In this document: one piece after another, positions 4,650-16,204 of the stretch
How the letters are laid out: the number at the start of each line of letters is the position of its first letter
Position numbering within the stretch: the first letter of the stretch is position 1
From: Thermoanaerobaculia bacterium
Lineage (GTDB): Bacteria > Acidobacteriota > Thermoanaerobaculia > Gp7-AA8
DNA: 64,000 nt
Direction of reading: 5' to 3'
Assembly: GCA_034665065.1 (NCBI GenBank)
Contig: JAXDGL010000008.1
Span: forward strand, 319,412-383,411
Notes under the pieces: model-generated
Database searches by the model: none
What the model was told of the DNA's origin: nothing
The model's input: only the letters and a program-made list of their open reading frames with translations
Translations under genes and position numbers: made by a program

Positions 4650-4870
4650 TCCCGAATCTTTTCTTCGTCATCCGCCGTCTCGCTTCCCTTGTACGTCGCC
4701 AGACAGTCGCCGCACAACATGTCGCTGTTGTTGTCGCCGGGTGCGGGAACGAAGCCGTCACGCTGCACGACTTCGAGGAAACAGGCCGTGTACTCCTCAG
4801 GCATCTCACCGCGAACGCTCGCGGTTCGGCCGCAGTCGCGGCATCGAAGGAGCGTCTGCCCTTCCATCAC
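4646..4870 (-). CDS. small zinc-ribbon protein
   Basis: 74 aa with CRDCGR…CGDC (two CxxC pairs). Its start overlaps the stop of the upstream peptidase gene by 4 bp (ATGA). Confidence 0.45.
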   Translation of the reverse strand: MMEGQTLLRCRDCGRTASVRGEMPEEYTACFLEVVQRDGFVPAPGDNNSDMLCGDCLATYKGSETADDEEKIRD

Positions 4871-6582
4871 TTTTCTCCGGCCGCGGGAAAGACGGGTGTG
4901 ATGTCGACGGGGATGTCCTTCAGCGTCGCGTTGACTGCGGCCATCTCCGGCGTTTCCTTTCCGTAGCGATCGAGCAGCGCTTTCGCGCGCGGATAGTCAC
5001 CCGTCGCTTCGATCGTCAACAGTTCCGTGGCGAGATCGCGGACTGCGTCGCGCGATTTCGCGAAGTCGACGGTGAAGCGGCCGCCCGCGATCGGCGTGAC
5101 CGCGCCTTTCTCGCGCAGCCAGTTCCACTGAATCGCGGTACCGCGTCCGTGCGCTTCTCCGACTCCGAATCGTGTCGAGCGGAACATGAGGCCGGCGTAG
5201 GTCGCCAGCAGTTGGCGTTCATTGAAGGCAGTGACGAGTCCGTGCTGCTGTGCATAGAGAAGATTCCAGACGCCGAGAACGTCGGCCTTGCACTCTTCGA
5301 CGGTCGAGAAAAGCTCTTTGAGCGGGATGCGTACCTCGACGCGTTTGCCGTCCGCTTGCGTCAGGAATCCTGGCCCGAGGCCGTGGGAGAGCTCGTGGAA
5401 GAGAACGTGATTGAAGAACGCATCGAACGAGACGAGACTTTGCAGCGACGAATCGAGCACGCGCGCGGCGATCGGCTTGCCGCTCTGCCGGAACTTGGCA
5501 TCCATCACGTTCTTGAGCAGGACTTTCTTCGAACCTTTCTTCTCGCGCACCACTTCGTCGTTCGGCAGATTGAACGCCGCAGTCTGCACGCCGTTGCGCG
5601 CGTCGCCGGCGGTGTAGAGCTCCTGCACGACTTTGATCGGCGACTCGCTGCCGCGGTTGGGATTCTTGTACTGCTCCGGCTCCGGCAGATTCTTCTCCAT
5701 GTCCGGAAGCGCCTTCGCATACGCGGCGAGCTTCGCGCTTTCGGGTTTATCGACGACGGTCACGAACGACTCGTACGACGCTTTGTAGTTGAAGAGATTG
5801 TCTTCGTAGACTTCGTACGGACCGATGACGACTTCGATGTTGCCGGCGAGGTCCATCCAGGCCATGTCACTCTCTCGATAGTTGTCGGAGAGCAGCGCGT
5901 CGGCGCGGGCGGAGAGAAAGCGCTTCAGCGTTGCATCGGTCGTGATCGCCGCGGCCTCGCGAAGATTTTGCGCAGCCGGCTTCAGGTAGTCAGCGTAGTA
6001 GGCGGCGTACGGAATGCCGACGAGGTTCGTACCATCGCGCCGGACGACGGCGAAGAGTCCCTCCAGCTCCTCCTTCTGCGATGGATGCGCGGCAACGTAG
6101 CGCTCGAATTCATCCTTCGTGATGTCGGACGGATAAAACGCGGCGCCCGGCGGCTTCGCGCCTGCGGTTCCGAAAGGCGCGATGAACGGCTCGTCGCTCT
6201 TCAATCGGTCCCAGCGGCCTTTGTTGGCGATGAAGTAGTCGAGAGCCGCTTTCTGGAGTGGCCCTCCAGCGCTGGCATCGCCGAGCTTTTTCAGAAGCAG
6301 CGGATTCTCTTCGCTGACCTGTCGCCAGTAGATCTCCTCGATTTGCTTCGACGCCTCGATCAGCTTGGCCACGACCTGACGCTCATTGTCATTGAGCAGC
6401 GCGTGGTCGTAGTCGATGACCGTGCGCGGAAGCTGGGCCATGCGCTGCGCCGTATCGGGCGCGATCGGGGATGACGCAGCCGCCGTTGATGGTGTTGCCG
6501 CCGGAGCGGTTGACGTCGGAGTGGTTGCTGTCTGGCACGCCGTGGCGGCGGCAGCAATGAGGAGGATCAGTCGTTTCATCAC
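4867..6582 (-). CDS. secreted/lipoprotein HEXXH zinc metallopeptidase (DPP-III/M49-like)
   Basis: N-terminal signal with lipobox-like …AATACQ, a Thr/Ala/Pro-rich linker, and an FHELSHGLG HExxH motif. 571 aa. Confidence 0.7.
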   Translation of the reverse strand: MMKRLILLIAAAATACQTATTPTSTAPAATPSTAAASSPIAPDTAQRMAQLPRTVIDYDHALLNDNERQVVAKLIEASKQIEEIYWRQVSEENPLLLKKLGDASAGGPLQKAALDYFIANKGRWDRLKSDEPFIAPFGTAGAKPPGAAFYPSDITKDEFERYVAAHPSQKEELEGLFAVVRRDGTNLVGIPYAAYYADYLKPAAQNLREAAAITTDATLKRFLSARADALLSDNYRESDMAWMDLAGNIEVVIGPYEVYEDNLFNYKASYESFVTVVDKPESAKLAAYAKALPDMEKNLPEPEQYKNPNRGSESPIKVVQELYTAGDARNGVQTAAFNLPNDEVVREKKGSKKVLLKNVMDAKFRQSGKPIAARVLDSSLQSLVSFDAFFNHVLFHELSHGLGPGFLTQADGKRVEVRIPLKELFSTVEECKADVLGVWNLLYAQQHGLVTAFNERQLLATYAGLMFRSTRFGVGEAHGRGTAIQWNWLREKGAVTPIAGGRFTVDFAKSRDAVRDLATELLTIEATGDYPRAKALLDRYGKETPEMAAVNATLKDIPVDITPVFPAAGEK

Positions 6583-6603: not shown

Positions 6604-7254
6604 TTGTACGTGAGCCGAACGCTCTGCTATCGTCAGGCCACTTCCAGCCGAGGTTCTCTATTGATCATCGAGTGCACGAGCTGTCACGCGCGGTATCAGT
6701 ACGACGAGGACCGCTTCGACCGGAAGCCGGTGAAGAAGATCAAGTGCGCCAAATGCAGCACGGTGTTCGAGATCCAGAATCCTGCGTTCGCCGAGAAACC
6801 GGAGCCGTCCACCGGTGAGTCGACGTTCGCGCGGCGCGAGGAGACCCGCACGCGCGCGCCCGAACCGAAAGAGACGAAGGAGACGACCGAGGAGTCGCGC
6901 CTCCCGGATCGCGGCACCGGTCCGCGGCCAGCACAACCACAGTTGCCAACGGGCAGGCGCATTTCGATCGCCGTCATCGCCGGGACGGACGCCGGGATGG
7001 TGTATCGAGTAGAGAAGCCGCGCATCACGATCGGACGCGCCGGCGCCGACTTGACCATCAACGACGGCGAGGCGTCGCGCCAGCATGCCGCGATCGAAGT
7101 GCGCGACACGGTCATCACCGTCGAGGATCTGAAGTCGACGAATGGAACGCTGATCGACGGCGAGAGGATCATCCAGCCGGTCGAGCTTCAGGACAAGGCG
7201 GAGTTCCAGATCGGCGGCACGACGCTGATGCTGATCATGACGGACGATGGGTGA
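6604..7254 (+). CDS. FHA-domain protein with N-terminal MJ0042-type zinc ribbon
   Basis: CTSCHARYQYDE…KCAKCSTVFE zinc ribbon. C-terminal FHA domain (ITIGRAGADLTINDGEASRQHAAIE…STNGTLIDGERI). The likely true start is the TTG at 6661 (MIIECTSCH…). Confidence 0.8.
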   Translation: MYVSRTLCYRQATSSRGSLLIIECTSCHARYQYDEDRFDRKPVKKIKCAKCSTVFEIQNPAFAEKPEPSTGESTFARREETRTRAPEPKETKETTEESRLPDRGTGPRPAQPQLPTGRRISIAVIAGTDAGMVYRVEKPRITIGRAGADLTINDGEASRQHAAIEVRDTVITVEDLKSTNGTLIDGERIIQPVELQDKAEFQIGGTTLMLIMTDDG

Positions 7255-7537
7255 TTGATTGCGCTTCGCGCGTTGTCGGTTGTCGGTTGGTTGCGCTTCG
7301 CGCGTTGTCGGTTGTCGGCGCTTCGCGCCTTTTCTAGAACGATCCTGCCCCGTCTTGGGCGGCGAGTATTCCAAGCATGAAGAGTTCGATCAGCTCCCGA
7401 ATTCGACACTGGCGCAGACAACGCGCGAAGCGCAATCAACCGACAACCGACAACGCGCGCAGCGCAATAAGACAACGCGCGAAGCGCAATCAACCGACAA
7501 CCGACAACGCGCGAAGCGCAACAAGCGCAGCGCAATA
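7255..7537. repeat. composite direct+inverted repeat of a ~36-bp GC-rich unit
   Basis: Unit TTGATTGCGCTTCGCGCGTTGTCGGTTGTCGG occurs twice in direct orientation (7255-7328) and twice as reverse complement (7419-7537). Can fold into a long hairpin with a ~90-nt loop. Confidence 0.8.
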
Positions 7538-8406: not shown

Positions 8407-8606
8407 AAAATGTTGAATGTTGAATGTTGAATGTTGAATGTTGAGTGTTGATCGTGCGCCGCCATCCTCCGTTCGTTCAACACTCAATACTCATCATTTA
8501 CAATTTAATGAATCCAACATTTAATATCCATCATTTAACATACAATATTAACATCCGCCATTTAACACTCAACATTTAACATTCAACATTCAACATTCAA
8601 ATGTTC
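8407..8606. repeat. AT-rich imperfect palindrome built from TTGAATG heptamer arrays
   Basis: 5x tandem TTGAATG (8409-8445) and its reverse complement CATTCAA x3 (8580-8606) flank a ~120-bp AT-rich core carrying repeated CATTTAACA-like motifs. Sharply lower GC than surrounding DNA. Confidence 0.8.
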
Positions 8607-8749
8607 GCTGAACCAGAATCATCGTTCTGCGCGAAGATTCTCAGCATCCAAGGTACAGCCGGCCTGGAAGACGCTTCGGCGCCGGCAACGGAACGACGAA
8701 CCCCCGCTCCCCACACCCATCCCGTATCATGTCGCGCCGCGGAGGTCGA

Positions 8750-10372
8750 ATGTCCAGACGTCTCCTCTGTTTCTCGTTCTTACTTCTTCTCGTTTCGCTT
8801 CCGGCTCTTGCCGACTCGCCGGGCGTGTACGCAATCACGGGTGGCACGATCCACCCGGCCAGCGGGCCGGAGATTGCGAACGGCGCGGTGATCATTCGCG
8901 ACGGTCTGATCGAATCGGTGGGCTACGCGGTGGCCATCCCGCTCGACGCCACGGTCATCGACGTGAAAGGGGGCCACATCTACCCCGGCCTCATCGATGC
9001 GATGACGTCGCTCGGTTTTCCAAGTGCGAGCGCGCCACGACGACGCGGTGGTGGGGGAGCAGCGGCGCGCGCGCCGGCAGCCGATCCGTTGCCCGAAACG
9101 GGGCCGTCGTTTCTCGCCTTTCGCGAGGCGAAGCTCTCCGACGATGACGTCGACGCCAAGCGCGCCACCGGCGTGCTGACGATCGTCACCGCACCTTCGT
9201 TCGGCATTTTTAACGGCCAGGCCGTCGCGCTGAACCTCGGCGGCGGGACGATGGAATCGCGCGTCGTTCGCAATCCCGCATGGCAGCAGATCTCGTTCAA
9301 TCCGCGGCCCGCGTGGACGTATCCCGATTCGCTGATGGGCGTGATCTCGTACATCAAACAGACGCTGCTCGACGCGCAGCAGCACGCGGTTGCGAAGTCG
9401 ATTTACGACAAGAATCCGGCCGGCTACAAACGTCCTGACGAGAGTCCATCGCTCGACGCCCTCGGCTCCGTGCTGCGCCGCGACGTGCCGCTCCTCTTCG
9501 TCGCCGACAGCGAGTTGATGATCCGTCGCGCCGAAGCAATCGCCAAAGAGTTCAACGTGCGGCTGATCATCGCCGGCGCGCGGCAGGGCTACAAGATCGC
9601 CGATGAGTTGAAATCGATCGGCGCGCCCGTGCTGGTCTCGACGAAATGGCCCGTCGCGCCGGCGGAGAAGGAGGATCGCGACGAGCAACCGCTGCGCGTC
9701 ATCCGCGACCGTCAGCTCGCGCCGACCACTCCCGCGGTGCTGGCAAAGAGCGACGTGCTCTTCGCGCTCGTCAGCGGTGCCGGGAAGACCGGCGACTTCA
9801 TTCCCGGGATACGCAAAGCGATCGAGAACGGGTTGTCTGCGGACGACGCGTTGCGCGCCACGACGATCAACGCAGCGAAGATCGCCGGCATCGACCGGCA
9901 GCTCGGATCGCTCGATCGCGGCAAGATCGCGAACATCGTCATCACCGACAAGCCGATCTTCGACAAGGAAGCGAAGGTGAAACGGATCTTCATCGACGGC
10001 CGCGAATCGAAAGTAGCTGTCGAGGATGAGAAAAAGAAACCGAGTGGCGGGACGGCGACGGCGGGAGCATCGGCGTCGAGCATCGACGGCAGTTGGAGCT
10101 TCATCGTCAAGACCACCGCCGGCGACGCGAACATCTCCGCGACTCTGCGCGTCGAGAATGGCCAGATCAGCGGCACGTTCTCCGGCGACCGCGGCTCCGG
10201 CAGCATCGGCAACGGAACGTTCGACGGCACGACGGTCGAGTTTTCGATCGCCGGCCGCGGCAAGGAAGAGGCGGGCGACTGGCTGTTCCACGGCACGCTG
10301 CACGGCGCGAACATGGAGGGAACTGTAGCGACGACGCTCGGCACGTTCCCGTTCACGGGGAGTAAGAAATGA
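8750..10372 (+). CDS. secreted amidohydrolase-family protein (paralog 1, metal-binding HxH replaced)
   Basis: Signal peptide [21 protein letters not shown]. Amidohydrolase fold motifs ([17 protein letters not shown]; C-terminal [13 protein letters not shown]). The canonical HxH after the GLID motif is absent. Confidence 0.8.
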
Positions 10373-10416
10373 AAATCATAAAAGACGTTGTCGGTTTTCG
10401 GTTGTCAGTTGTCTGC

Positions 10417-10566
10417 CATTCCGAGCCCGGCGGCGCCCCGGAGGGGCAAAGTACGGCGAGGAATCCCCTGCCGTTCGCCTCTACCGCCGCCCGCCCTTCG
10501 TTTCAAGAAGGGGATTCCTCGCCGCGCTCCACCCCTCCGGGGTTTCGCCGGCTCGGAATGACAGCG
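10417..10566. repeat. MITE-like palindromic element, family A copy 1
   Basis: Termini CATTCCGAGCCCGGCG … CGCCGGCTCGGAATGACAGCG. Inner inverted pair GAGGAATCCCCT/AGGGGATTCCTC. Related copies at 13401-13460 and 28873-29082. Confidence 0.8.
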
Positions 10567-11940
10567 ATGCCGCTGCTCCTCGCAGTTGCAGCGTTTGCGC
10601 AGACAACTCCTCCAACCAACGACATCCTCATCCGCGACGCGACGATCCTCACGATTACGCATGGCAAGATCGAGCATGGATCGATCCTCGTGCATGGCGG
10701 GAAGATCGCCGCGGTCGGCGGGAATGATCGCGTGACGGCGCCGGCGAATGCGACGGTCATCGACGCTGCCGGCAAGTTCGTGATGCCCGGCATCATCGAC
10801 ACGCACAGCCACTCCGCGGTCGAAGGAAGCGTCAACGAAGTCTCGCTGCCGAACACCGGGATGGTGCGCATCGGCGACGTTCTCACCAACGAAGACATCG
10901 ACGTCTATCGCCAGCTCGCCGGCGGGACGACGACGGCGCTCGTCCTGCACGGCTCGGCGAATCCGATCGGCGGCCAGTCGCAGATCGTGAAGTGGAAGTG
11001 GGGACATCCCATCTCCGAATGGCCGGTCTCCGATGCCCCTCGCACGATCAAGTTCGCCCTCGGCGAGAATCCGAAGTCGTCGAACTTCCGGCCGCCGCCG
11101 GGGATCCCTGCGCAATACCCGCAGACGCGCATGGGCGTTGAGGAAGTCATCCGCCAGTCGTTCACCGATGCGAAGGATTATCTGGCGCGATGGGACGACT
11201 TCGACGCGCGCAAGAAGCGTGGCGAGAATCCCATTCCGCCGCGGCGCGATCTCCTGATGGAGACCATGGCCGACATCCTACGCGGCAAGATTGACGTCCA
11301 CTCGCACTGCTACCGCGCCGACGAGATCATGATGCTGCTCAATGTCTCCGACGAGCAGGGCTTCAAGATTCGCGAGCTGCAGCATGTGCTGGAAGGCTAC
11401 AAAGTGGCGAAGGAGATCGCCGCGCACGGAGTCGGGGGCGGCACGTTCATCGACTGGTGGGGATTCAAGGCCGAGGCCTATGACGCGATTCCGTACAACG
11501 TGGCGCTGATGGATCGCGCCGGCGTGCTGACGTCCGTGAACTCAGACTCAGGCGAGCTGGCGCGGCATCTCAATCAGGACGCCGCGAAAGCGATGAAGTA
11601 CGGTGGACTGTCGGAAGAAGAAGCGCTGAAGCTCTGCACACTCAACGGCGCGAAACAGCTCCGGCTCGATCATCGAATCGGATCGGTCGACGTGGGCAAG
11701 GACGCCGATCTCGTGATCTGGAACGGCCATCCGCTGTCGGCGTACTCGCGCGTCGAGACGACGCTCGTCGATGGCGAGATCGTGTTTGACCGCCAGCGCG
11801 ATCTGGCCATGCGCGCGCAATTAGCCGCGGAAAAGAAGGATCGTTTGAAGAAAGAAGCGGACGACGAAGCAAAGAACAAGAAGCCATCGAAGCCCGGCAA
11901 GAGCGACGAAGAGACGAAGCCGGAGGCAACCAATGATTAA
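10558..11940 (+). CDS. secreted amidohydrolase (paralog 2, intact HxH)
   Basis: Signal peptide [29 protein letters not shown] metal-binding motif. C-terminal [15 protein letters not shown]. The ORF-track N-terminal extension (10369-10557) is translated MITE sequence. Confidence 0.85.
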
Positions 11941-13282
11941 CCTGGGACCGCGGGCGTCCCGCCCGCATTCGACGCCTCCAGTGCTGAGATTGATAGTCGC
12001 GCTTCTCCTCGCCACATCGGCTTACGCGCAATCGGTCATCCCGAACAGTCCCGGCAAGAAACCGACCTTCGCCATCCGCAACGCCACGATCGTTCCGGTG
12101 ACTTCGCCGCCGATCGCGAACGGCACGATCGTCTTCGCCAACGGCGTCATCACGGCCGTCGGCGCCAACGTCACCGTTCCCGCGAACGCGACCGTCATCG
12201 ACGGAACGGGCCTCTTCGTCTATCCCGGTCTCATCGACAGCGGCTCGCATGTCGGACTCGAAGAGATCAGCGCCGTTCCCGGCACCGTCGACACCGCGGA
12301 GTTGGGCGATATCAATCCGAATGCGCGCGCCGAGGTTGCGGTGAATCCGCATAGCAACGTGATACCGGTGACGCGCGTGAACGGAATCACAACTGTCGTC
12401 AGCGAGCCTGAGGGAGGCATCATCTCCGGCTCGTCGGCGATGATCCAACTCGCCGGATGGACGCCGCAGGAGATGACGCTCAAGGCGCCGCTGGCGATGC
12501 ACATCCACTTCCCGCGCTTGCGGACCAATGCGTTCGACGAAGTTCCGCAGGATGAAGAGGCCACGAAAGAAGCGGCGAAGAATTACACGAAACAGATCGA
12601 CAAGCTGCGCGACACGTTGCGCGACGCGCAGGCATACGGGCGGGCATCCGCGGCGCGCACGAATCATCCAGAGATCAAGCGCGTCGATCGCGATTTGATG
12701 CTCGAAGCGCTCGTTCCGGTCGTCGAAGGACGCGAACCGGTGGTGATGCACGCGAACCTGGAGCGCGATATCCGTGCGGCGATCAAGTTTGCCGATGAAT
12801 TCAAATTGAAAGTGATTCTCGCTGACGCCGAAGATGTGGCGAAGGTCATTCCCGAACTGAAGTCGCACAAGATCCCGGTGATTCTCGGGCCGATCCTCTC
12901 GATGCCGCCGCGCGAAGACGATCCGTACGATCTCGTCTACGGCAACGCCAGGACGCTGTTCGACGCGGGCATTCCGTTCGCGATTCAGTCGCTCGATGCG
13001 CACAACGCGCGCAATCTACCGTATCAGGCCGCTGCGTGCGCGGCGTTCGGGTTGCCGAAAGAGGAAGCGTTGCGCGCGGTGACGATCGCGCCCGCGCAGA
13101 TTTTCGGGATGGCCGATCGAATCGGATCGCTGGAGGCGGGGAAGCTGGCGAACATCATCGTCACGGACGGCGATCCGCTGGAGATCGTTACGCACGTGAA
13201 GCGGCTGTTCATCGGCGGGGAGGAGATCTCGCTGGAGACGAACCAAACGTTGCTCTACGAGAAATTCAAGGCGAGGCCGTGA
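11933..13282 (+). CDS. secreted amidohydrolase-family protein (paralog 3, HxH degenerate)
   Basis: Overlaps paralog 2 by 8 bp. [15 protein letters not shown] (SH instead of HxH). C-terminal [16 protein letters not shown]. Confidence 0.8.
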
Positions 13283-13298
13283 AGCCTCTCGGCGGTCA

Positions 13299-13386
13299 CC
13301 AGTGATCAGTGATCAGTGATCGGTGGTCAGAAAGTCAGGACGCTGGATAGCGATTCCTGATCTGGTCACTGATCACTGATCACTTG
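13299..13386. terminator. hairpin of inverted AGTGATC heptamer arrays
   Basis: AGTGATCAGTGATCAGTGATCGG … CTGGTCACTGATCACTGATCACT, immediately after the amidohydrolase 3 stop. Confidence 0.55.
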
Positions 13387-13400
13387 ATTGTCGCTTCGTG

Positions 13401-13460
13401 GGCGGAGATTCCTCGCCACCCGCCGCTCCGCCCGCTCGGAATGACAGCGAGAATGACAGC
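13401..13460. repeat. family A MITE half-copy
   Basis: GGAGATTCCTCGCC…CGCTCGGAATGACAGCGAGAATGACAGCG matches the right half of the family A element. Confidence 0.6.
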
Positions 13461-14007: not shown

Positions 14008-14169
14008 GCCCTGGACATACTCCAAGGGCGGTACCATGCAAGAATCTCAGTAGAATCAACGACTTAGTAAATCGTGCGCGATTTGAACGTCGCGAAATCA
14101 GACAGAGTGTCCTGATATCGTACGGTGAGAGATTCGCCTGATCGCGTGTATAGTCCGCCCAGTTCTTTC

Positions 14170-14335
14170 CCAATTTCTCTGAGTCAGTGAACGGGAAGCC
14201 GGTGTGATGCCGGCGCGGCCCCCGCCACTGTGACCGGCGACAACTCGCTCCACGATAGCCACTGCATCTACCGATGCGGGAAGGCGGCGCGACGAGGATG
14301 ACCCGGAAGCCAGGAGACCGGCTGGCTCGGAACCC
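14170..14335 (+). ncRNA. cobalamin (AdoCbl) riboswitch
   Basis: GGGAAGCCGGTGTGATGCCGGCGCGGCCCCCGCCACTGTGACCGG … GGGAAGGCGG … B12 box GAAGCCAGGAGACCGGC, directly upstream of the btuB-like receptor. Confidence 0.8.
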
Positions 14336-14371
14336 ACTTTTGATTCTCTTCTTCGGAGGGAAGGAGTCGTC

Positions 14372-16204
14372 ATGAAGCGTGTTCTCGCTGCGTCTCTGCT
14401 TTTTGCTGTTTCCTCGTTCGCTCAATCCACCCCACAACCCGTAACCATCAACGACCAGATCGTCGTCACTGCCTCGTCGTTACCGGAGACCTTGCAGGTC
14501 ACTCCTGCCGCTGTCAAGGTCATCACGCGTGCCGACATCGCCGCGCGCGCCGCGCGCGATGTCGCCGACGTTCTTCGCGAAGTTCCCGGCCTCGTGCTCG
14601 CGCGCAGCGGCTCGCCCGGCAAAGCGACCTCGCTCTTCACGCGCGGCGCGGCGTCGACGCAGACGCTCGTCCTCTGGAACGGGATCGCGTTGAACAATCC
14701 CTATTTTTCCGGCTACGACTGGGGACGTTTTTCGACCGCCGGCGTCGAACAGATCGAAGTCGTACGCGGACCCTACTCCGCGCTGTACGGTTCAGAAGCG
14801 ATGGCGGGAGTGATCAACGTATTGACCGCGCCGCGCACGAGCGCCGTTCATGGCGACTTCGAGAGCGGTAGCCATGGCTTGCGCAATGCCGCGCTCAACG
14901 CGACGTACGCCGCGGAAACGATCCAGGCCGCCGGCAGCTACGAGCATCGCGCCGATGATGGTTTCAACGCCAATGACGATTTCCGCCAGAACAGCGCCGG
15001 CGCGAACGCGAAATGGATTCCGTCCGACTCCTTTTCCATCGGCGCTTCCGGCCGCCACACTTCCTACGACCTCGGCATCCCCTTCAACACAAATGCCGCA
15101 GGCACCGCACTCGTGCCGAGCCTCGATCGCCGTCAGAGCGGGACGGAGACGCAGATCGCCATTCCGGTTAGTCTGACGCTCGGCCGCTTCATCAGCGATC
15201 TGACGCTCTCCGACAATCATCGCCGCGATGATTTCTCCGATCCTGCCGATCCGTTCACGACATCGACGTCGACCGATGCGAAGACGCGCCGCGCACGCTT
15301 GACGACGCGGTTTGTTACATCGGTAGGTACGATCGTCGCCGGCGGCGAGTACGAGCGCGACCTCGTCAGCGACGTCACCAACTACGGTCCGAATTTTCTC
15401 GCCAAGCGGCGCACCGATCACTCCCTCTTCATCGAAGACCGCTATTCGCATCCCATCAGCCAGACCACGCACTTCGAGCTCAGTGCCGGCGTCCGGCGCG
15501 ACCGCTTCGATACGTTCGGTGGACAGACGTCACCGCGCGTCGCCGCGGCCATCGTTCGAGGAACGACGAAATGGCGCGCCGCCTATGGCACCGGCTTCCG
15601 CGCTCCCTCCCTCGGCGAGTTGTACTACCCGTTCTTCGGTAACGCCGCGCTGAAAGCGGAGTCCAATCGAAGCTATGAGATCGGCTACGACGCGCCGATG
15701 GGACGCGACGGACTCTTCTCGCTGACATACTTCAACAGCCGTTACCGCAATCTCATCACCTTCGATCCCGTCACGTTCATCTCGCAGAACATCGGACGCG
15801 TGCGCGCCGACGGCGTCGAGGTCGGGATCACCAATCAGGTGAGCGCGAACGTCTACACCGCCTTCAGCTACACGTACCTGCATCGCGACGAAGATGAGAA
15901 GACCGGCCTGCGCCTGCTCCGCCGCCCGAAGCACTCCGGATCACTGGCGACCGGCTATCGCAACGGCGCGATCGACACGAACATCGCCATCCTCCGCACC
16001 GGCGAGCGCGACGACTCGCAAGCCGTTCTTCCATTCGGCCGCGTAACCAACAAGTCCTACACGACGATCGACGTCAACGTGCAATACCACATGGCGCACG
16101 TCTCCCCATTCGTAAAGATCGAGAACCTGCGCAACACGGCGTACCAGGAAGTCGTCGGCTACGCATCGCCGGGGCGAAGAGTGATCATCGGCGTGAAGTT
16201 CTAA
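14372..16204 (+). CDS. btuB: TonB-dependent outer-membrane cobalamin receptor
   Basis: Signal peptide, TonB-box/plug region (DQIVVTASS…VVRGPYSALYGSEAMAGVINVLT), C-terminal beta-barrel ending in F. Preceded by the B12 riboswitch. Confidence 0.85.
   Translation: MKRVLAASLLFAVSSFAQSTPQPVTINDQIVVTASSLPETLQVTPAAVKVITRADIAARAARDVADVLREVPGLVLARSGSPGKATSLFTRGAASTQTLVLWNGIALNNPYFSGYDWGRFSTAGVEQIEVVRGPYSALYGSEAMAGVINVLTAPRTSAVHGDFESGSHGLRNAALNATYAAETIQAAGSYEHRADDGFNANDDFRQNSAGANAKWIPSDSFSIGASGRHTSYDLGIPFNTNAAGTALVPSLDRRQSGTETQIAIPVSLTLGRFISDLTLSDNHRRDDFSDPADPFTTSTSTDAKTRRARLTTRFVTSVGTIVAGGEYERDLVSDVTNYGPNFLAKRRTDHSLFIEDRYSHPISQTTHFELSAGVRRDRFDTFGGQTSPRVAAAIVRGTTKWRAAYGTGFRAPSLGELYYPFFGNAALKAESNRSYEIGYDAPMGRDGLFSLTYFNSRYRNLITFDPVTFISQNIGRVRADGVEVGITNQVSANVYTAFSYTYLHRDEDEKTGLRLLRRPKHSGSLATGYRNGAIDTNIAILRTGERDDSQAVLPFGRVTNKSYTTIDVNVQYHMAHVSPFVKIENLRNTAYQEVVGYASPGRRVIIGVKF

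Follow-up and report, generated by a model that had tools for sequence, protein, structure and literature searches.

Background

Enzymes of the amidohydrolase superfamily are generally treated as homo-oligomers, and the characterised COG1228-type amidohydrolases form homo-oligomers. 3OOQ, a structural-genomics entry for an uncharacterised amidohydrolase of Thermotoga maritima MSB8, presumably belongs to the CDD subgroup Met_dep_hydrolase_C; the entry has 10 chains. Enzymes of its type are about 385 residues in length, lack a signal peptide and are encoded alone. Here I describe a trio of tandem genes (A, B and C), all called 'amidohydrolase family protein' by automatic annotation, in a 64,000-nt stretch of a Thermoanaerobaculia metagenome-assembled genome (Acidobacteriota). 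This stretch is called the window, and all coordinates are positions within it. 3OOQ is the closest solved relative of the three products. Unlike the 3OOQ type, however, the window encodes three diverged and putatively exported paralogs, two of which lack the metal ligands and one of which has an extra beta-barrel. Together, A, B and C probably make up a single exported hetero-oligomeric amidohydrolase, in which B would be the catalytic subunit and A and C its non-catalytic partners.

Among amidohydrolase-fold proteins, the nearest precedent is the aspartate transcarbamoylase (ATCase) complex of Pseudomonas aeruginosa, in which an inactive dihydroorotase-like chain is kept as an obligatory structural subunit (PMC7053772). 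As proposed for the trio, a catalytically dead amidohydrolase-fold paralog is the partner in a complex. There, the dead subunit serves an unrelated enzyme in the cytoplasm, whereas the trio has two apparently dead paralogs beside a live one of the same family and would be exported. No transcarbamoylase gene was found among the neighbouring genes of the trio that were examined. An analogy for the working of the trio is offered by the heterodimeric M16B peptidases and by the alpha and beta subunits of the mitochondrial processing peptidase. In these, the genes of the paralogs are adjacent, the metal motif survives in one subunit but not in the other, and both subunits are needed to form the substrate chamber. 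Their fold and family are unrelated to those of the trio, however, and they have two parts rather than three. In the searchable literature on 3OOQ, on its CDD subgroup, on amidohydrolase pseudoenzymes or non-catalytic subunits, and on periplasmic heterotrimers of Acidobacteria, no description of the trio was found.

Three amidohydrolase paralogs in tandem

An earlier note, made from the sequence of this locus, had described three tandem amidohydrolase paralogs, with an HxH motif in the middle one only. The three ORFs do lie head to tail on the plus strand at the positions it gave, and the motifs it quoted for A, B and C are present as written. Gene A (8750-10372, 540 aa) encodes a putative exported pseudoenzyme of the amidohydrolase fold, composed of an apparent signal peptide, a degenerate amidohydrolase domain (residues 25-425 approximately), a disordered linker and a small C-terminal beta-barrel. 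An upstream ATG at 8729 would lengthen A by seven residues; an identical 540-aa database protein (P0001) begins at 8750. Gene B (10558-11940), for the predicted catalytic subunit, gives 460 aa from the ATG at 10558 or 523 aa from that at 10369. Gene C (11933-13282, 449 aa) encodes the second putative exported pseudoenzyme. It overlaps with B by 8 bp (11933-11940), the ATG of C being at 11933 and the TAA of B at 11938-11940. At the other junction, the stop codon of A overlaps with an ancestral start codon of B as ATGA (10369-10372), and the reading frame is open from this ATG.

All three proteins pass the Pfam gathering cut-offs for PF01979 Amidohydro_1 (25 bits) and PF07969 Amidohydro_3 (29.7 bits), with 52.7 and 30.7 bits for A, 65.1 and 76.7 bits for B, and 49.2 and 43.5 bits for C, respectively. 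They are 25-31% identical to each other: 31% between A and C (E-value 1e-42), 29% between B and C (7e-37) and 25% between A and B (6e-18). By these scores, A, B and C are members of the amidohydrolase superfamily, and the mutual identity marks them as true paralogs. On the other hand, none of them reached the cut-off of any NCBIfam equivalog (Xaa-Pro dipeptidase, HutI, NagA, PhnM, dihydroorotase, hydantoinase and others). The best NCBIfam scores were 81 bits for B (cut-off 391), 52 bits for C (cut-off 500) and 52 bits for A (cut-off 226), while the Xaa-Pro dipeptidase model gave 65 bits against a cut-off of 500. Thus, the trio is claimed by no curated functional family.

For all three proteins, the best PDB chain was 3OOQ, which aligned over its full length with E-values of 8e-23 (A), 3e-60 (B) and 6e-42 (C). 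The characterised relatives (prolidases, Arg/Lys carboxypeptidase, imidazolonepropionase, NagA and dihydroorotase) are far more distant. The next-best PDB and NCBIfam relatives are the COG1228-type enzymes of the same superfamily, namely the Xaa-Pro dipeptidases 3FEQ and 3N2C, the Arg/Lys carboxypeptidase Cc2672 (3MTW) and the imidazolonepropionase HutI, but the trio proteins score far under every NCBIfam cut-off. The AlphaFold (AF2) model of A has a pLDDT of 84.5, and its best Foldseek match was also 3OOQ (TM-score 0.85 normalised to the target, E-value 3e-28). The modelled fold of A is a (beta/alpha)8 barrel with a flanking beta-sandwich. The full-length alignments to 3OOQ suggest an amidohydrolase-type fold for B and C as well.

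Metal-ligand positions

The alignments comprised 65-70 orthologues of each gene, drawn from a set of 80 related genome loci. A wider sample, taken from representatives of clusters at 50% identity, comprised 81 B, 146 A and 43 C domains. Ligand positions were assigned to strands by alignment to 3OOQ and by general knowledge of the superfamily, B being known from its sequence only. B has H83 and H85 on strand 1, K165 on strand 4, H248/H250 on strand 5, H276 on strand 6 and D330 on strand 8. H83-S-H85 (10804-10812, plus strand) is the sole intact HxH among the three genes. Of 71 B sequences, 70-71 have these ligands, namely the HxH, the Lys, the strand-5 His, the His within QHVLEGYK and the Asp within NSD. 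Every one of them is also kept in 80-81 of the 81 B domains of distant fused relatives, where the conserved strand-5 His is the second of an HxH. Thus, judged by alignment, B has every ligand of a binuclear amidohydrolase centre and is predicted to be catalytically competent.

The situation in A and C is very different from that in B, as the alignment confirmed: canonical ligands are kept in B, while A and C have variable non-ligand residues. The HxH position of A (residues 79-90, 8984-9019, plus strand) reads M-T-S. In 69 orthologues plus the window sequence, the first residue is Q, M, H or L, the middle one is T in 69 of 70, and the third is S, F or E. Over the whole set of ligand positions, the window A reads M-T-S, Q, V-A-D, G and G, and its orthologues read Q/M-T-S, Q, V-A-D, G and G. 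The corresponding HxH position of C (residues 98-109, 12224-12259, plus strand) reads G-S-H. Among 66 C sequences, the first position is Gly in 62, while the third is N in 21, H in 16, S in 13, Q in 5 and T in 5. The window C reads G-S-H, H, H-A-N, D and D, and its orthologues read G-S/T-(N/H/S/Q/T), mostly H, H-A-N, G/D and D.

Around the former metal site, some polar residues do persist in the C proteins of Thermoanaerobaculia (a strand-4 His in 54 of 66, a strand-5 His in 59 of 66, and a D-A-H on strand 8). These are gone from the Bryobacterales-type C, which has no ligand residue at all and reads S-A-S-N, Q and F. The possibility that C is a half-active enzyme using its remaining His was rejected, since neither this His nor the other polar residues are kept beyond the close clade. 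In the wider sample, A and C vary at every former ligand position but that on strand 6, where a Gly stands in 134 of 146 A domains and in 37 of 43 C domains. The earlier note had allowed that other ligand positions in A and C might compensate for the lost HxH, and no conserved replacement other than this Gly was found. By the canonical metal-ligand criterion, A and C are thus dead, and both lack a conserved substitute constellation.

Gene order, fusions and selection

Is the trio conserved as a unit? The genes stand in the order A-B-C on one strand in all 68 informative genome loci, and the remaining 12 loci, which lack C, all stop at a contig edge. The order is kept even in Bryobacterales loci whose A is 37% identical to the window A (L075, L077 and L080). 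The Bryobacterales-type loci have other flanking genes and 4-bp overlaps at both junctions. In metagenomes, a complete trio was found in 58 of 80 loci, nearly all of the others being cut by contig ends; the informative loci number about 61. Three loci have two parts only, despite kilobases of flanking sequence: L108 (A and B), L148 (B and C) and L166 (an A-D-B fusion without C, D being the extra beta-barrel described below). The missing part might lie elsewhere in those genomes. Occurrence of the paralogs apart from each other, which had been proposed as a sign against a joint function, was thus limited to these three metagenome loci and to solitary enzymes of the ancestral type in Thermotogota and Dictyoglomaceae.

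In other lineages, the parts are fused into one polypeptide. A profile of A was searched against 1.84 billion cluster representatives and matched 36,547 proteins at an E-value of 1e-3 or lower and 2,960 clusters at 50% identity at 1e-30 or lower. Among the 150 best matches, 45 have the architecture A..B..C in one polypeptide of 1266-1589 aa, 41 are A..B fusions and 64 are A alone, 28 of the last carrying the extra beta-barrel once or twice. Shorter fusions are the A-B proteins P0384 (883 aa) and P0378 (923 aa) and the A-B-C protein P0361 (1284 aa). The fused sequences have a single N-terminal signal peptide, no internal one, and low-complexity linkers. Independent full-length fusions were found in different assemblies labelled Planctomycetota, Armatimonadota and Vicinamibacterales. 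At the DNA level, 15 of the 80 metagenome loci have an A-B fusion with C as a separate gene behind it, and in one of the 15 a contig end truncates C. The permuted order B-C-A, with B and C fused in one ORF and followed by a separate A, was found in L138, L143 and L144. Since three fusion combinations always join the same three paralog classes, they are strong evidence that the parts act together. They also suggest equimolar amounts of A, B and C. In four loci (L157, L160, L162 and L163), about 240-440 residues between the fused A and B were matched by none of the A, B, C and D profiles, and there may be a further domain between A and B.

Against eight relatives, the ratio of non-synonymous to synonymous substitution rates (dN/dS) ranged from 0.12 to 0.16 for A, from 0.09 to 0.15 for B and from 0.08 to 0.14 for C. 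The motifs PGLIDAxTSLGF and WTYPDSLMG are invariant in A among 12 Thermoanaerobaculia-type homologues of 66-100% identity. These results indicate that A and C are not decaying but are under purifying selection as strong as that on B.

Origin of the trio

A neighbour-joining tree placed each of A, B and C in a clade of its own, with support from 100, 98 and 98 of 100 bootstraps, respectively, and A and C as sisters (98). B clusters with Thermotoga-type enzymes, 3OOQ among them, and has the HxH, K, HxH, H and D motifs of 3OOQ. In Kosmotoga and in one Dictyoglomaceae genome, the Thermotoga-type enzyme is encoded by the lone amidohydrolase gene of its neighbourhood. The trio is thus an elaboration of a solitary enzyme, and it predates the separation of the classes of Acidobacteriota. 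A triplication of a solitary 3OOQ-type enzyme would have given rise to it. The common ancestor of A and C would have left the B lineage first, and A and C would have diverged later, all before the separation of Thermoanaerobaculia and Bryobacterales.

Interpretation

The earlier note had proposed one catalytic subunit acting together with two non-catalytic partners, and this view is supported by the retention of ligands in B and their loss in A and C, by the conserved order, and by the fusions in several phyla. Of these, the fusions weigh most. Such partners are absent from the solitary, cytoplasmic 3OOQ type, and the hetero-oligomer idea is thus well supported. B would perform a metal-dependent hydrolysis at a binuclear centre in which the strand-4 Lys would be carboxylated. 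A and C, which have lost their metal sites, would have been kept as obligatory non-catalytic partners, probably in a 1:1:1 ratio, serving as a scaffold, a stabiliser or a substrate-access module. As their relic pockets lack conservation, A and C would more likely serve as scaffold, stabiliser or chamber than bind a ligand where the active site used to be. In the window, each part has its own apparent signal peptide and assembly would follow export, while in other lineages the parts form one polypeptide. We may infer an association of the exported parts, with their stoichiometry and metal content as outlined; an amide substrate, peptide-like or N-acyl, is my guess because the COG1228-type enzymes are the next-best characterised relatives.

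A more specific version can be imagined, although I consider it doubtful. The trio may be an obligate pseudo-symmetric heterotrimer derived from a homo-oligomeric 3OOQ-type ancestor, whose two dead subunits enclose or gate, as a substrate chamber, the one active site, and it may represent an undescribed class acting on a polymeric or bulky amide. If so, such heterotrimers would be widespread undescribed amidohydrolase machines, either periplasmic or secreted, among the Acidobacteriota, Planctomycetota and Armatimonadota of soil and water, and their polymeric or bulky amide substrate would be beyond the reach of the solitary cytoplasmic ancestor.

Several observations weigh against joining the three proteins in one enzyme. 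The 3OOQ-type enzyme exists alone, and the partners are thus not intrinsic to B-type catalysis. L108, L148 and L166 carry two parts only, and the trio is thus not absolutely obligatory. The coupling of A and B is broken in this genome by a 186-nt repeat-bearing spacer (see below), and the signal peptides of all three proteins were read by eye. No conserved neighbour hinting at a substrate was found among the Thermoanaerobaculia and metagenome loci. Moreover, fusion and synteny are also seen with consecutive enzymes of a pathway, so that they demonstrate co-function rather than contact between subunits.

In a rival view, the three proteins are separate enzymes that act in the same pathway, A and C catalysing different reactions that are metal-independent or differently liganded, and clustering and fusion reflect metabolic channelling. 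Consecutive enzymes are equally prone to fusion and operon linkage, a few members of the amidohydrolase superfamily function without metal, the purifying selection on A and C equals that on B, and the C proteins of Thermoanaerobaculia keep the strand-4 His, the strand-5 His and the strand-8 D-A-H. However, a real enzyme would be expected to conserve an alternative catalytic constellation, whereas the seven former ligand positions of A and C have no conserved replacement save the Gly, and the polar residues are absent from the Bryobacterales-type C; I regard this view as unlikely. Slightly less likely still is that A or C, or both, are stand-alone proteins for binding or regulation (such as a binder of ligands in the periplasm, or a protein that inhibits or chaperones B) that act transiently. 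A separate signal peptide on each protein, the weak resemblance of the small beta-barrel of A to ligand-binding barrels and the rare loci with two of the three parts would fit such proteins. Against them stands the covalent three-part fusion in many lineages, which means a fixed 1:1:1 ratio and permanent proximity and is a poor fit to a transient regulator; in addition, the relic pockets are not conserved and many A proteins lack the beta-barrel. As for the loss of catalytic ligands, it might also be expected if A and C were recent, functionless duplicates of B on their way to becoming pseudogenes. This was ruled out, leaving it a negligible chance, by dN/dS values of about 0.1, the full-length open frames, the orthologues of each gene across classes and phyla, and the invariant motifs of A. 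A hetero-oligomer with B as the catalytic subunit is thus the preferred reading.

What would such a trio mean? It is a broad module in which two of three 'amidohydrolases' cannot, by their ligand positions, be canonical hydrolases, and its recognition corrects the functional inventories of abundant soil phyla. It is also a clean natural case of the evolution from an enzyme to pseudoenzyme subunits, with split, two-part and three-part gene architectures, and a putative secreted complex is a tractable target in poorly understood bacteria. No long-standing question is resolved by it, and a dead paralog as a partner is a principle already known.

The A/B and B/C junctions

The stop/start overlaps are compatible with translational coupling, which the earlier note had deduced from them. 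The 8-bp overlap of B and C is real and conserved, most orthologous loci having a B/C overlap of 4, 8 or 11 bp. The ATGA at the A/B junction is also real, although the start codon in it is probably not used here. In most orthologous loci, the ATG overlapping with the stop codon of A leads straight into the signal peptide of B. In the window, the signal peptide of B begins only at the ATG at 10558, and the use of the ATG at 10369 would give B an N-terminal extension of 63 residues. The A/B overlap is thus ancestral but probably vestigial in this genome, where a palindromic repeat parts it from the signal peptide of B.

A palindromic repeat element some 165 nt long (10400-10566, plus strand) is inserted in the 186-nt stretch between the ATGA and the ATG at 10558 and is bounded by the terminal inverted repeats CTGCCATTCCGAGCC and GGCTCGGAATGACAG. 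The element is an imperfect palindrome with 43-nt arms that are 81% complementary. A homologous element was found at the identical A-B site in four other loci (L004, L009, L012 and L014), and the right half of the element is repeated after gene C (13404-13450). It may be a MITE-like or REP-like element. The B frame is open through the element in all of 15 close relatives, and the right end of the element supplies an in-frame ATG. This ATG (10558), coming from the element itself, is the likelier start codon of B in this genome.

Signal peptides and the extra beta-barrel

Signal peptides were judged by eye. Each of the three proteins has a hydrophobic N-terminal segment ending in A-x-A (ALA/DS in A, AFA/QT in B and AYA/QS in C), and equivalent segments are kept in the orthologues of A, B and C. 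The three proteins are thus putatively exported, either to the periplasm or out of the cell. In L080, the Bryobacterales-type B has a twin-arginine-like N-terminus, RRKFLRG (9310-9380 of that locus; MDRRKFLRGFLLAPLAAFAAG), while the signal of the window B is short, of the Sec type and free of basic residues. The lineages may differ in their export route.

The extra beta-barrel of A, here called the 'D' domain (residues 447-539 approximately, 10088-10366, plus strand), is modelled as a nine-strand up-and-down beta-barrel with a pLDDT of 89. A sequence search of Pfam and the PDB with this domain gave no match. Foldseek gave weak matches to small meander barrels or lipocalin/FABP-like barrels, with E-values of at least 1.8e-3. 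The place of the domain varies among relatives, where it is found after A, after B, or in duplicate, and the Bryobacterales-type A has no 'D' domain.

Neighbouring genes and repeats

A scan for promoters and terminators found sites no more numerous than in shuffled sequence. Downstream of the trio, a gene for a TonB-dependent receptor with Plug and beta-barrel domains (14372-16204, plus strand) lies directly 3′ of a cobalamin riboswitch (Rfam RF00174, 113 bits, 14168-14340, plus strand). The receptor gene follows the trio in 47 related loci, and the riboswitch and the receptor form a separate B12-regulated unit. The recurrent neighbours in other lineages are purM/purN, in 10-11 of 80 loci, plus assorted genes. 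Gene context was thus rejected as a clue to the substrate, the downstream receptor being behind its own cobalamin riboswitch and the neighbours elsewhere being only purM/purN and assorted genes.

Upstream of the trio, a Peptidase_M49 homologue resembling dipeptidyl peptidase III (DPP III) is encoded on the minus strand (4867-6582). It carries an apparent signal peptide as well as the motifs HELSH and EECKAD, and a gene for a protein with a zinc ribbon and an FHA domain (6604-7254, plus strand) adjoins it. The M49-like peptidase was considered as a functional partner of the trio, and nothing was found to connect them. It is not among the families recurring beside the trio, which were compared as clusters without Pfam annotation, and the neighbours of the Bryobacterales-type loci differ.

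Long imperfect hairpins whose arms are tandem heptamers flank the operon. The one upstream of A (8409-8600) consists of (AATGTTG)n/(CAACATT)n, and the one downstream of C (13295-13384) of (AGTGATC)n/(GATCACT)n. A third heptamer array lies around 7259-7500 and is visible in the ORF translations (..TDNRQ..). In some relatives, such as L006 and L013, the A-B spacer is filled by similar heptamer-derived sequence.

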